A stretch of 28,363 bases of DNA, from positions 1 through 28,363 of the forward strand of contig JAWOEX010000030.1 of assembly GCA_046482545.1 (NCBI GenBank), written 5' to 3'. Shown here piece after piece: positions 1 through 27,083 of the stretch (positions within the stretch are counted from its first letter, which is position 1; every line of letters starts with the position of its first letter). A program made the translations under genes and the position numbers. Below the pieces are notes generated by a model. It ran no database searches. It had not been told where the DNA came from and saw only the letters and a program-made list of their open reading frames with translations. The stretch comes from Candidatus Thorarchaeota archaeon. Lineage in GTDB: Archaea > Asgardarchaeota > Thorarchaeia > Thorarchaeales > Thorarchaeaceae.

Positions 1-188
1 CCGGGTCAGGGCAGGAGACAGAAGCCGAGACCGAAGGAGGGACCGTGTCCTGATGATGGCGGTCAAAGCCCGTGCTTGGCCGGGGGTAGCGCTCCGGTAT
101 GGCGGCGACGCTGGGCAAGGAAAGGGTGGAACACAGGAGTTTCCTCAGTTGGGTTCACTCACTCAACTGTAAGAAACATGTTATCCAG
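1..188 (+). ncRNA. Copy 1 (3' part, cut by window start) of the dispersed ~425-nt structured mobile RNA element
   Basis: Aligns by eye with 17018-17198 and ~25410-25600 (CAGGAG..GAAGCC..GACCG..GGAGG..GATGA..AAGGGTGGAACA..CAGTTG..AACTGT..GAAA..GTTA.C.AG). K-turn hairpin at 29-64; 3' hairpin CAGTTGGGT(146-154)/ACTCAACTG(161-169). Confidence 0.8.
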
Positions 189-3329: not shown

Positions 3330-3821
3330 GTGCCAAAGAGAGCAAGATGTCCTTACTGTGGGAAGCTGTTTGACAGATACGAGCTTGATGAGCATGTACG
3401 AGTCTGCAGAAGACGCAATCAGCACAGTGAGTCTAAGACCAAGAGTAGAAGAAAGCTTGTTATCGATGGCAATAATGTGGCCTATTATTTGTCCTACGAT
3501 GGGGTTCCACAGGCAAGAAATATCGCTCTGGCAGACCGGAGCCTCAGAAATGCAGGATACAATCCCGTTGCGGTCGTTTCGGCAGCCCTGAAGTATAGAG
3601 TAGAAGACGAGGGAATCCTTGATAGATTGGTGAGACAGGGAAAAGTCATAGAAGCTAGTAGTGGTACCAATGACGATATGCTAATTCTGCGTCTTGCAAA
3701 GCGGCGCAACGCCGATGTCGTATCGAATGACAGATTTCTCGAATGGGTAGACAGATTTCCTTGGATTGCTCGGAGACGACATGGATATAGAATGACGCCG
3801 TCCGGTTTGATACTGCTGTAA
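3330..3821 (+). CDS. Zn-finger + NYN/PIN ribonuclease (Zc3h12a/Regnase-like NYN domain)
   Basis: N-terminal CPYC..H...C; catalytic acidic motifs VIDGNNVAY, NDDMLIL and VVSNDRF. Confidence 0.8.
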   Translation: MPKRARCPYCGKLFDRYELDEHVRVCRRRNQHSESKTKSRRKLVIDGNNVAYYLSYDGVPQARNIALADRSLRNAGYNPVAVVSAALKYRVEDEGILDRLVRQGKVIEASSGTNDDMLILRLAKRRNADVVSNDRFLEWVDRFPWIARRRHGYRMTPSGLILL

Positions 3822-10943: not shown

Positions 10944-11142
10944 TCTCCGTCCACGTCTTATCTTGCTATGACCTGTTCCTTACAGCTAAGTAAACTGCCT
11001 AAAACTTCTGTGTTTCGCCCTTTGCCTGTGAGCGTCGTCGCCCTCAAGATACTTCTCAGATCTTGGGCTTTCAAAGACATAATGATATGGTAAGTTCGAT
11101 AAACTTTTCCTTATTCATTCCAAACTAAATAGGGAGCTACAT

Positions 11143-16248: not shown

Positions 16249-17287
16249 TCATTTCATGGAGGTAATCAAACCTTCAAGTTTTTCTCTATCAAAATTCCGC
16301 TTGAAAAGAGGACGATTGTTCGAGTCATATACTCCAGAAGCCTCTGAAAAGCTCGGTTTTGACGTATCTTGATAAAAGACACCAAGAGCTAATTTGCTCA
16401 TGTTGTTTACCTTCTCCTCTTCAACTTCAAAAAGCGCTGATAGAAAACCAACTGCAACTGTATTGGAGTAAATCTTTGCGCTTACTTCATTGGCGATATC
16501 AGTAAATGGGACCTTGAGAATTCGGTCTGTAGGAATCTCCATATCCGGGGTGATGTTCTCTTCTTCACCAACTACGAGTGTGGACTTGTTGAGTCTATCG
16601 TATCTCTTCAGATGGGGAAGTGCACGCTCATTCAGGGAAAATACAATATCTGATTGCTCCGAATACGAGGAAATGTTTCCCTGTCCTACACGAATCTGGG
16701 TTGAATTCTTTCCACCACGAATCTGTGACATAAATTCTCTTGTGGAATACACGTTGTAACCAGAACGTTTCAAGAATAGGCAAGTGGGCTAGTGCTGTGC
16801 ATGACGCCCACGGCCGAAAGCTGTGAGGAAACCTCTTCCTTCTAAGCAGAAGTCCTCACTCTCCGAACAAGGAACTTCATCAGGTTCCGGAGAGTCCGCA
16901 ACTGTTCACCATGTCCGTAATGGACCTCCTCAGTTACGGCGACAATGCTGAGATGGGTGATCATGACCACGCCGTGGTAAGAACTGTGGAAAACCTCGCT
17001 GTCGCCGGGAGTGATGACCCGGGAACACGACAGGAGGAAGCCAGGACCGCAGGAGGAACCCTGTTCCGATGAACGCGGACAAAACCCCTGCTGACTCAAG
17101 GGCCTACGGGTACCGTGGGGGTGGTAACGCTGGCAGGGGAAGGGTGGAACACAGAAGTTTCATACAGTTGCTAAAACTGTAAGAAATAGGTTATCAAGGC
17201 AGATACGAGAAAATCTTCAACAGTTGCTATTCCTTGACCCTCTGCACCAGATAGAACAATGGAGACTCCCTTCTTCAAATTGACCAC
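16249..17287 (-). pseudogene. 2-oxoacid:acceptor oxidoreductase remnant (korA 5' part fused to a korB-like 3' end), interrupted by the 424-bp element
   Basis: VSIVLSGAEGQGIATVEDFLVSAL (ending at 17195) continues after the insert as KRSGYNVYSTREFMSQIRGGKNSTQIRV. The ORF then ends after ~150 aa of KorA with LGVFYQDTSKPSF..PLFKR, resembling KorB C-termini. Confidence 0.8.
16775..17198 (+). mobile_element. Copy 2 (complete, 424 bp) of the structured RNA-like element, inserted in korA
   Basis: Flanked by TCAAG at 16770-16774 and 17194-17198. Deleting 424 bp gives TCT GCC TTG AAA CGT (S-A-L-K-R) in frame on the minus strand. Homologous to copies 1 and 3; no intact ORF. Confidence 0.88.
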
Positions 17288-17551
17288 GTCTATATGAGCA
17301 ATCCAATTCTCTTTCATGCTCCTAAGACTAGTGAAAACATGAGCTTGCAAATGATACCAACTTGTTGTATGCTCATGGTAGAAAATTACGTGTGTTGCCA
17401 TCTATCTCTAGGCCTGCGTTCCGTCCAATTTCTGAGAATAATAATCTAATCTCTTTAGGTTAGTCTGTCATTGACACCGGCATAGACTTCAAGTATGATT
17501 GTTCTGCTTCACGCACATAGTATACCATCACACAATAATGGGGTCATATGC

Positions 17552-25040: not shown

Positions 25041-25600
25041 CTCAAGAGTTCGATGAATCTCTCTTTGTGGAGAGTAAGGACTTCTACTTAGAATCACAGG
25101 ACTTCCTCACATCTTTCGGCCGCGTGCTTCGCGCTTCTGTGCTAGCCCAATTGCCTGGTCCTACTGATATCCAGTACGGTTGTCTGTCTACTAAACTCCT
25201 TTTTGGTCACGAAAAGGGCTCGATGAAATCTTACACTCTACTGTGCTGATTTATTTAGGATTCTGTAGGATTTACAAAGATCTTGAGAGTCCGCTGCTGT
25301 TCACCTCGTCTGTAATGGGCCTCCTCAGTGGCGGTGACAATGTTGAGGTGGGTGATCATGACCATGCCGTGGCAAGAACTGTCGAAGACTTCACTGTCAC
25401 CGGAGTAATGTGCCTGAACAACGACAGGAGACAGAAGCCAGGACCGCGGGAGGGACACCGTTCTGATGAACGTGGACAAAGCCCCTGCTAACCCGAGGTC
25501 CTAGAGGTACCGTGGGGGCAGTGACGCTGGCAGCGGAAGGGTGGAACAGAGAAATTTTAGGCAGTTGGGTTCACACAACTGTACGAAACAGGTTAGCAAG
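25041..25600. mobile_element. Copy 3 of the structured element, with its 5' domain inverted
   Basis: 25281-25600 (+) matches 16886-17198. 25048-25156 (-) matches 16778-16885. The inverted block 25048-25280 is bounded by CTCAAGA(25041-47)/TCTTGAG(25281-87). Confidence 0.85.
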
Positions 25601-25730
25601 AGGAGCCTAACGGTTCTACAGCAAGTTGAATCTTGCACAATCCGAAGTGCATGAGGATATTGAAATGCAATGTTTCCCAATGCTTCTTCTCGTTCTTACA
25701 CAAGGAACCGGGTAAGTCAGTGGCGGCATG

Positions 25731-26837
25731 TCACTCCGCCAGTTTCCTTAAATCCAAGTCTCCCACACGGGCACGTATCCTTTTTCCAATCTTTTCAATG
25801 TCTTTCCGAAGATTATCAATTTGCTGACTTCGTTCCTCTATCTCTTCCTTCTTTTTTTGATCCGTTTCCATGTACTCTTCATATGCCTTGGACCACTCTT
25901 CTCTTGTCTCACTAATCTGGCGTTTCAAGTGTTCATACATCATCTTCTTAGCATGTACTTTGTTCCTGAGTTTGAGAAGCTTAGTCTCATATTGTGAAAC
26001 GACATCTGATAGTTTATCCTCGGCATTTTTGAGCTCTTTGCGTAGCTCGAGCAGCTCAGCCATCTCTTTTCCAATCTGATCCTCTTTCAGCAGTTTGGAG
26101 TCTTTCACCAAAGACGTTATCGGATCCAAGTGGGGTATCTCAGAGGCGGTATCATTCTCAACAGATGGGACCATTGCGTGGTTTGTACTCGATTCAGCGC
26201 TTTGTTCAACGGTCGCGGATTCTCTTGAAACTGACTCCTTTGCTTCAGCAACATTGACTTTCTGTTTAGATTCATCGGAGAGTTTTCGGGTTCTCTCAAT
26301 TATAAGCTCAATCAGTTTCAGGAAGGCCTCATCAATATTCTCTCCTGTCAAAGCAGAAGTCTCGATGAATGCAGCTTTAACATTCAGTTTCTTACTGAAT
26401 TTCTGTGTGAATGCCTGACCTTCTTCGGGTGACACAGTCTCTCTTTCCGGACGGCTTCCTCGCAAGTCAATTTTATTGGCTGCAACTATGAGGGGTGGTA
26501 GTTCTTCCATGAATCCGTGAGCTTCGACGAGCCACTTTGAGGCATTATCGAAGGTTTTCCTGTCTACCACAGAATAAACAACAATAAGGCCGCTACAGCC
26601 TTGATAGTACCGCTTCCGGAGGCTCTTGAAAAGGGGTTGCCCTGCTATGTCCCAAATGACAAGTTGGGTCTTGATTCCGTCGTAGGTCAGAGTTGTATGT
26701 GCGAAATCAACCCCTAGGGTGGGAAGATAACTTGCTTTAAAACCCCTACCCAAATATTCTCTTCTTATCGATGTTTTGCCTACGTAACCATCTCCAATCA
26801 GGCACACTTTGAATTGCCTGCGGATGCCTTCCGTCAT
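25731..26837 (-). CDS. Rab-like small GTPase with a C-terminal coiled-coil extension
   Basis: GDGYVGKT, YLPTLGVDF, WDIAGQ, NKID, ETSA; linker then ~110 aa of heptad-rich E/K/L sequence. Likely start MTEG at 26837. Confidence 0.9.
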   Translation of the reverse strand: MTEGIRRQFKVCLIGDGYVGKTSIRREYLGRGFKASYLPTLGVDFAHTTLTYDGIKTQLVIWDIAGQPLFKSLRKRYYQGCSGLIVVYSVVDRKTFDNASKWLVEAHGFMEELPPLIVAANKIDLRGSRPERETVSPEEGQAFTQKFSKKLNVKAAFIETSALTGENIDEAFLKLIELIIERTRKLSDESKQKVNVAEAKESVSRESATVEQSAESSTNHAMVPSVENDTASEIPHLDPITSLVKDSKLLKEDQIGKEMAELLELRKELKNAEDKLSDVVSQYETKLLKLRNKVHAKKMMYEHLKRQISETREEWSKAYEEYMETDQKKKEEIEERSQQIDNLRKDIEKIGKRIRARVGDLDLRKLAE

Positions 26838-27083
26838 ACAGTAAATTCTCCTTCCCAAGAGTGGCGCATTGAGTATTTGCTCCAAAGGCATATAGTACTA
26901 TTGTGCGTGTGACCATTCAATTTGACGAACTTAGATACTTGGTGGCTTGTAGAAGTGATGGGAATATTCCAAAAATAGAAACCGTAGCCAAAACAAAGTT
27001 CTATATGGCATCATTAGAGTCATATTGAACTGTGTTCTAATACGATTGTTTCCCCCACAGAAGAGGTCGTCACACTGCAGCCA

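Follow-up and report, generated by a model that had tools for sequence, protein, structure and literature searches.

The window, by which we mean the whole 28,363-nt stretch of Candidatus Thorarchaeota DNA analysed here, carries at positions 16770-17199 of its + strand a copy of a dispersed repeat (copy 2) that empty-site alignments identify as a non-autonomous element lacking most of its left end and inserted antisense in korA (2-oxoacid:ferredoxin oxidoreductase alpha). The interrupted gene lies on the - strand as a 5′ part (17200-17340) and a fragment downstream of the copy (16414-16773; PF01558), which form one piece in the congeners G001 and G002, and in both congeners the site is empty. 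TCAAG is found at both junctions: the left hexamer of the TCNNGA type is TCAAGA (16770-16775, +), and the right hexamer, TCAAGG (17194-17199, +), is host-derived according to the empty-site alignment. A left-end remnant (16776-16785, +) is joined to the RNA start through AGGCAAGT microhomology, the left-end body having been removed by a deletion between two copies of AGGCAAGT (8-bp microhomology). The left-end repeats, the TATA box and the 5′ strand of helix P1 are gone, and P1 is only 0.6 paired. What remains is an omegaRNA-like scaffold of ~417 nt (16778-17194, +). It contains both strands of a pseudoknot, AUGACC (16963-16968, +) and GGUUAU (17189-17194, +), the latter being scaffold end and right terminus at once; the 5′ strand CUGUG (16984-16988, +) of a long-range helix, P7, which pairs with 17150-17154 (145/145 cells paired, 4 double-sided); and a domain closed by CCCCUGC/GCAGGGG (17085-17137, +). 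The predicted cis guide, inferred to lie in the 3′ flank, would occupy 17195-17210 (+). When folding was compared with that of shuffled sequences, copy 2 gave z-scores of -3.5 on the + strand and -2.5 on the - strand. Copy 2 has neither GUUCACUC nor the GTTCACTCA motif. The copy is a post-insertion deletion derivative and, with left-end body and TATA box lost and GUUCACUC absent, it is probably silent or dead.

An earlier note, written from the sequence alone, had placed three copies in the window (1-188, 16775-17198 and 25041-25600), and all three places were confirmed; it had overlooked a fourth, a degraded 3′ fragment on the - strand (10961-11078) that is absent at the orthologous G001 site. 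The ~425 nt assigned there to copy 2 proved to be an incomplete unit, the intact unit being ~560 nt long with a 145-nt left end. Copy 1 (1-189, +) is a 3′ part cut by the contig end, which keeps GUUCACUC at 153-160 and has TCCAGA as its right hexamer (184-189). Copy 3 (25042-25601, +), given in the note as a third copy, is a full but decayed 560-nt element with its 5′ ~240 nt inverted, and its site is empty in G002. The inverted segment (25048-25280, -) holds the left end, a TATA-like box (25188-25196) and the first ~110 nt of the RNA. It is bounded by the reverse-complementary hexamers TCAAGA (25042-25047) and TCTTGA (25281-25286), and undoing the inversion restores a left end followed by model positions 1-419; the right hexamer is GCAAGA (25596-25601). 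The 3′ part of copy 3 folds no better than shuffled sequences (z +0.06). The empty sites in two congeners support the note's proposal of a non-autonomous mobile ncRNA family. Its statement that the window has no transposase held, and there is no TnpB in the window either; its claim that there is no nuclease ORF failed, as the ORF at 3330-3821 (+) encodes an NYN RNase (Zc3h12a-like) that has a zinc-finger-like motif at its N-terminus and no relation to the element.

In the source genome (G000), 88 HMM matches to the repeat were found, 45 of them near full length, amounting to ~1.1% of the assembly. Of 24 other genomes in the same family, 17 contained the repeat when searched with a DNA query, as did none of 16 more distant genomes; an Rfam search returned no match to it. 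The note had pointed to a resemblance between broken + strand peptide frames and TnpB tails, and had proposed a link to tnpB. Both held: the frames are the C-terminal tail of TnpBs, and each of the genome's six TnpB genes with a strong PF07282 match ends within an element copy on the same strand. The omegaRNA interpretation thus survived the test that the note had set for it, and the + strand is the RNA strand. Intact TnpBs are 544-612 aa long (~550 aa), and in full elements the tnpB tail frame overlaps the first ~250 nt of the RNA. The ~420-nt repeat body is thus a conserved structured RNA that overlaps the 3′ end of tnpB. In 40 of 52 family loci the RuvC residues of the TnpBs read D-G..E-D, with G where E is usual and an E further on; this kind of rearrangement has been described as a compensated, probably active site (PMC10691335, section 8), and the nearest solved relatives of the protein are TnpB and Cas12f. 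Taken as a whole, the system works as TnpB omegaRNA systems do, and its membership of the Cas1H-Asgard group is very likely. At G000:C28:236401-237303, the N-terminal part of a tnpB has given way to an AsnC-like HTH start, without a break in the open frame.

The RNA fold was derived from an alignment of 28 tnpB-linked loci plus copy 2, in which 55 of the 103 predicted pairs showed double-sided changes; the covariation that the note proposed to test is strong. The individual stems it named fared less well. The CCCCUGC/GCAGGGG stem held, with 28 double-sided cells. Pairing of CGGCGACA with UGUCGCCG was not favoured (9 cells, against 21 and 28 for local helices on the same bases), and neither was the long-range UGUUC-ACC/GGU-G-GAACA stem (88% paired, 2 cells), which was outdone by UCACC/GGUGA (98%, 13 cells) and CUGUG/CACAG (100%, 4 cells); two of the three stems are thus likely to be wrong. 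The internal AUGACC pairs with the terminal GGUYAU to form the pseudoknot (own vs. shuffled, p = 0.005), and in an orphan-only clade from three other genomes both sides were changed, to AUGAAC/GUUUAU, in 8 of 11 copies. Such a pseudoknot is a conserved element of TnpB omegaRNAs (PMC13639567). By analogy with those RNAs, we infer that the guide starts directly after it, in the host flank. The note's suggestion of a guide taken from the 3′ flank is supported to this extent, while transcription of orphan copies and guiding of TnpB by them have not been shown. A guide in the variable stretch before GTTCACTC was considered and rejected, as this stretch is semi-conserved and pairs with an upstream RNA or in a cis hairpin. 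The GTTCACTCA motif that follows the variable stretch downstream of tnpB is present in the family, as in Cas1H-Asgard loci. Conserved GUGAU/UGAUG motifs also occur in internal and terminal loops (RNA columns 208-216, 262-266 and 321-327 of alignment A1), which we take to resemble kink-turn or kink-loop L7Ae sites.

In an intact orphan copy, ~560 nt long, two hexamers enclose the left end, a TATA-like box, the whole RNA and the right end. The earlier note had recognised neither the left end nor the TCNNGA core, and it had also missed the Cas1-fold protein and the small RNA upstream of tnpB that are described below. On the left, TCNNGA is followed by 9-10 variable bases and then by inverted, 11-bp-phased TCTTACA/TGTAAGA motifs, and the TATA-like box lies 34 nt before the RNA (27-36 nt across the orphan cassettes of separate origin). 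On the right, TGTAAGA stands 9 nt from the end and the second hexamer follows. In 10 of 74 right ends in G000, two extra bases (TA) separate the right end from the hexamer. The two hexamers were identical in 20 of 40 copies, and their central NN was equal at both ends in 27 of 40, compared with 5.6 after shuffling (one row of the hexamer table, C28_23559, was mis-assigned without effect on the results). Close left ends had the same NN in 24 of 52 cases, against 8.2 expected (p = 0.00025). Plain target duplication would not give such inheritance, and the element therefore seems to carry its core. No NN inheritance was seen along the tree of the RNA body (29 changes vs. 27 shuffled), and the copies look mosaic. 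We infer that a target hexamer identical to the element's own is required, or at least strongly preferred, for insertion. A casposon-type 15-bp duplication was rejected (match beyond the hexamer 77 vs. 72 shuffled), and right flanks were no more alike than expected (122 vs. 119), giving no sign of RNA-guided choice of insertion site beyond the hexamer. Short derivatives consisting of a left end and a right end with matching hexamers also exist. At G000:C20:181321-182440, two orphans lie head to head with one hexamer common to their left ends.

Full elements with the same ends were also found. Two of 8 kb (contigs C20 and C28) have the left and right ends of the orphans and matching, identical TCNNGA hexamers, and they carry tnpB together with a divergent giant gene encoding a protein of 1,400-2,000 aa. 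The giant protein had no Pfam match, Cas1 included, and no PDB sequence match, and was recognised by fold search only. A model of its first 290 residues (pLDDT 89), searched against 48,161 chains, gave Cas1 or casposase structures as all of its top 12 matches (Z 8.9-13.1; next Z 7.0), casposase 6opm among them, with an rmsd of 2.9-3.8 over 146-189 residues; Foldseek E-values taken alone were weak (best 0.006). Residues E68, H163 and D173 of the Cas1 domain are invariant in 40 homologues. The gene is present in 48 of 86 family genomes and is the only conserved partner inside the element ends; of the 41 loci with sufficient flanking sequence, 27 have it beside tnpB in divergent orientation. Giant proteins at L019:3122-7318, L020:2911-8799 and L021:4205-8974 have a PD-(D/E)xK-like motif after the Cas1 domain and more than 1,000 residues without a Pfam match. 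Serine (PF00239), tyrosine (PF00589) and IS110 (PF02371) recombinases were not matched in the 98.9% complete genome, and no Pfam match was obtained among the element ORFs tested. A Y1 transposase was rejected as the mover, the single Y1 gene of the genome being truncated and unlinked, and no reverse transcriptase was found, so that a retroelement reading was rejected as well. Because no recombinase of these types was found and the Y1 gene is truncated and unlinked, the Cas1-fold protein is inferred to be the best transposase candidate, although its activity is untested.

Upstream of tnpB, a ~75-nt two-hairpin motif follows a TATA box in 27 of 28 loci. Its GAGUGAACUCAACUG segment can pair with CAGUUG-x-GUUCACUC of the big RNA with locus-specific compensation (own vs. 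shuffled, p = 0.0015), and the duplex is more stable on the + strand in 21 of 27 loci; pairing on the minus strand also covaries (p = 0.006). The motif ends in GGUCAG, as the scaffold does in similar form, and is followed by 12-15 nt that match the upstream TATA region of the same locus (12.9/15 own vs. 9.5 across loci). The match begins at base 1 and fades after base 13, and in 31 of 40 loci the matched promoter site sits behind TTAAT (23) or TTCAT (8). In a second, overlapping set of loci, 34 of 38 reached 12/13 or better, and the 38 loci had 35 different 13-mers, each matching only its own partner. For four G000 loci, the promoter site was the only TAM-adjacent match in the genome. Permutation tests overstate these results, since the loci are related and guide and target are both TATA boxes; two mis-assigned rows of the guide-promoter table (L038 and L075) did not affect them. 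Only one repeat-like unit per locus was seen within the ~1.5-3 kb inspected around the loci. From covariation and sequence only, we infer that the small RNA is crRNA-like, with the big RNA as its tracrRNA, and that it may serve short-guide repression of the element's own promoter; support for the tracr-like pairing with a separate crRNA-like RNA comes from covariation alone. A standalone small-RNA copy without tnpB (G000:C38:60477-60555, -) has a different 3′ 15-mer, whose 15-nt match at C27:11533 (-) lacks a TAM-like motif.

The promoter sites suggest TTNAT as the TAM, and this motif preceded none of 54 insertion sites on the left flank. T at its invariant position, three bases before the hexamer, was found at 0 of 54 left junctions in G000 and 0 of 7 in other genomes, compared with 29% of genomic TCNNGA sites. 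Given this lack of a TAM at insertion sites, there is no evident homing benefit of the kind that an omegaRNA usually brings. Likewise, a scan of cis guides, self-targets included, found no TAM-adjacent genomic target.

Whether orphan copies function was approached through their mutations. Copy-private changes fell equally on paired and unpaired conserved columns (0.76 vs. 0.75 singletons per column), and private pair changes kept the pair in 30 of 111 cases vs. 28 expected. Pair variants common to four or more orphans were canonical in 34 of 41 cases, against 41 of 147 for singletons. Orphan insertions are recent. Orphans group with several tnpB-linked clades, so cassettes arose several times, and each independent origin retained the complete RNA downstream of a TATA-like box. 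This box was present in 25 of 33 outside orphans vs. a 5% background, with the caveat that the motif was picked after viewing the data. GUUCACUC is lost in 47 of 74 right ends. The simplest reading, which remains an inference, is that the RNA is under selection as long as a lineage is spreading and that copies decay once inserted; it is also possible that the structure kept in shared variants comes from unsampled tnpB-linked parents. Four orphan RNAs (L186, L187, L192 and L193, in G022 and G024) have a TATA-like box with no recognisable left end or hexamer; orphans of this type may be immobile, and one lies directly after a tRNA gene.

In our best explanation, a Thorarchaeota transposon with TnpB and a divergent Cas1-fold giant protein gave rise to this non-autonomous element. 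The Cas1-fold protein would act in trans on the end repeats of orphans to move them, and a target hexamer equal to that of the element would be needed or strongly preferred; Cas1 is not known to require core homology, which counts against this reading of the hexamer. Orphans would be transcribed and would load TnpB in trans with the 3′ flank as guide. In full elements, the ~75-nt RNA would pair with the GUUCACUC region of the scaffold, displacing its 3′ strand, and would supply a guide of 12-15 nt, by which TnpB would be held at the TATA box of the element and repress it without cutting. Without transcript data or biochemistry, we regard this explanation as a whole as likely (probability ~0.72). 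A bolder reading is that one 420-nt RNA has two uses, as a single guide with its flank and as tracrRNA for a one-spacer, self-repressing crRNA, with dozens of promoter-bearing RNA cassettes acting as trans guides; a single Cas1-mobilised element would then unite Cas1, TnpB, tracrRNA and crRNA without a CRISPR array, in the manner of a minimal CRISPR system. This joint claim could, in our judgement, as easily prove false as true.

One rival is a passive MITE, in which only the DNA ends matter and orphan RNA is unused baggage from tnpB-linked parents. This is possible: private mutations are neutral, the tail frame is kept in only 4 of 38 orphans, empty sites have no TAM, cis guides have no TAM-adjacent targets, and short end-only derivatives exist. 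Against it, full-scaffold cassettes outnumber short ones, repeated independent origins retain a TATA-like box at fixed spacing together with the whole RNA, and compensatory changes were fixed in the orphan-only clade. A second possibility concerns the upstream motif, which could act as DNA only, the matching 12-15-mers being paired promoters or operators and the GUUCACUC complementarity an old inverted repeat. Both 15-mers are indeed TATA boxes at promoter spacing, and the minus-strand pairing covaries; yet 13-mers that differ between nearly all loci each fit only their own partner, the match begins exactly after GGUCAG, a mimic of the scaffold end, the promoter partner has a TnpB-like 5′ motif that the guide copy lacks, and the duplex is stabler on the + strand.

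Two further rivals concern mobility, and we consider both unlikely. The RNA might be needed for movement if TnpB with a copy's own RNA bound that copy's right junction and marked it for the Cas1-fold transposase. Right ends do read NTNAT (GTTAT, GTCAT or TTTAT), which is TAM-like and followed by a guide-matching flank, T is never present at the invariant TAM position of empty targets, and structure is kept in amplified lineages and not after insertion. Against this, pseudoknot and hexamer fix the same bases, so that the resemblance to a TAM may be accidental; GTCAG is found at many tnpB-linked ends; there are short derivatives whose hexamers match; and, given a full match, an active RuvC would cleave the host DNA. 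Alternatively, an unrecognised serine- or tyrosine-type recombinase (IS607-like) could be the mover in place of the Cas1-fold protein. The NN inheritance, the inversion between inverted cores and the phased TGTAAGA repeats in the left end would fit such an enzyme, and rearranged-RuvC TnpBs often accompany serine recombinases. The near-complete genome gave no match to PF00239, PF00589 or PF02371, however, its Y1 gene is truncated and unlinked, and the Cas1-fold gene is the sole conserved partner inside the ends.

Asgard aCas1-associated TnpBs (Cas1H-Asgard-1/-2) have been published (Altae-Tran et al., 2023; PMC10691335, which cites Makarova et al., 2020, for aCas1), and the pairing of TnpB with Cas1 is thus already known. 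Our family resembles them in having TnpB beside a divergent Cas1 variant, flanking repeats, the conserved GTTCACTCA downstream of tnpB and an Asgard host. In that study the guide was placed, as a guess, in the variable stretch before GTTCACTCA, and the RNA regions were said to need more work; here, in contrast, this stretch pairs with the small RNA from upstream of tnpB, and from the position of the pseudoknot the guide is predicted to lie ~25 nt further 3′. An RNA fold, orphan cassettes and a hexamer core are all missing from the main text of that paper, and in the open-access literature searched, coverage of which is incomplete, we found no description of these three features or of the promoter-matching small RNA.

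As in IS200/IS605 and IS607 omegaRNA systems, the RNA overlaps the 3′ end of tnpB, has a pseudoknot at the right end and a putative flank guide, and occurs in protein-free mobile copies; standalone omegaRNAs acting in trans are known (PMC10691335, introduction). Unlike in those systems, the RNA is ~420 nt long, roughly double the usual size of a TnpB omegaRNA, there is no Y1 or serine TnpA, a hexamer stands on both sides, and the sites lack the inferred TAM. Identity with IS200/IS605 (PATE) was therefore rejected on account of the hexamer on both sides and the only Y1 gene being truncated and unlinked, and identity with IS607 because PF00239 was absent from the genome and the element ORFs tested had no Pfam match. 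In TranC intermediates, the TnpB RNA was split in IS605/IS607 lineages (Jin et al., 2025, summarised in PMC13639567). Our system would likewise be functionally split into tracrRNA-like and crRNA-like parts while a cis guide persists, but it has one repeat-plus-guide unit with a short self-promoter guide, no array being seen in the ~1.5-3 kb around the loci, and a Cas1-fold partner instead of an IS605/IS607 TnpA.

With casposons, the element shares a Cas1-fold enzyme as likely transposase (E/H/D residues, activity untested) and the location of some members at tRNA genes. It differs in that no PolB was found inside the ends, the Cas1 domain is fused to a giant nuclease-like protein, and TnpB is carried. 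Casposons have a ~15-bp target duplication, whereas a 5-6-bp shared core is seen here. The absence of a PolB Pfam match in the element ORFs tested and of a ~15-bp duplication led us to reject identity with a classical casposon, and a retroelement, group II intron or ribozyme was rejected in the absence of a reverse transcriptase and of an Rfam ribozyme match. Several tnpB-linked elements (L030, L033, L038, L041, L045, L048, L049 and G000:C23:124200-124290) end beside or inside tRNA-like sequence, four of them with the same ~13-nt flank. Autoregulatory RNAs of CRISPR-Cas loci include Cas9 tracr-L, scaRNA and CreR. The small RNA is like these in its short promoter match beside a PAM or TAM and in its predicted binding without cutting; unlike them, it belongs to a transposon TnpB and not to a CRISPR-Cas locus, and its role is inferred, with no biochemistry.

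Type V CRISPR is thought to derive from TnpB and the Cas1 integrase of a mobile element, and here a single transposon carries both TnpB and Cas1, in archaea closely related to eukaryotes. To the published account we add the RNA ends and fold, a predicted guide position, a candidate TAM (TTAAT/TTCAT), a putative tracr/crRNA split and the transposon ends. If confirmed, the small RNA would be the first case of RNA-guided self-repression by a transposon TnpB in the open-access literature searched, and integration by a Cas1-fold enzyme through a 6-bp homology core would be a new chemistry.

Comparison of the window with both congeners showed a 2-kb deletion at 16415 that removes most of korA and korB and, at 17340-17445, a ~1-kb deletion of the next gene; the two deletions flank copy 2. 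At the G001 site orthologous to window position ~13620, a short left-end plus right-end derivative is present (L063; G001:C84), with none in the window. Downstream of copy 3, the - strand encodes at 25731-26891 a small GTPase of the Ras/Roc family that is extended far beyond the domain at its C-terminus; eukaryote-signature proteins of this kind are typical of Asgard archaea.
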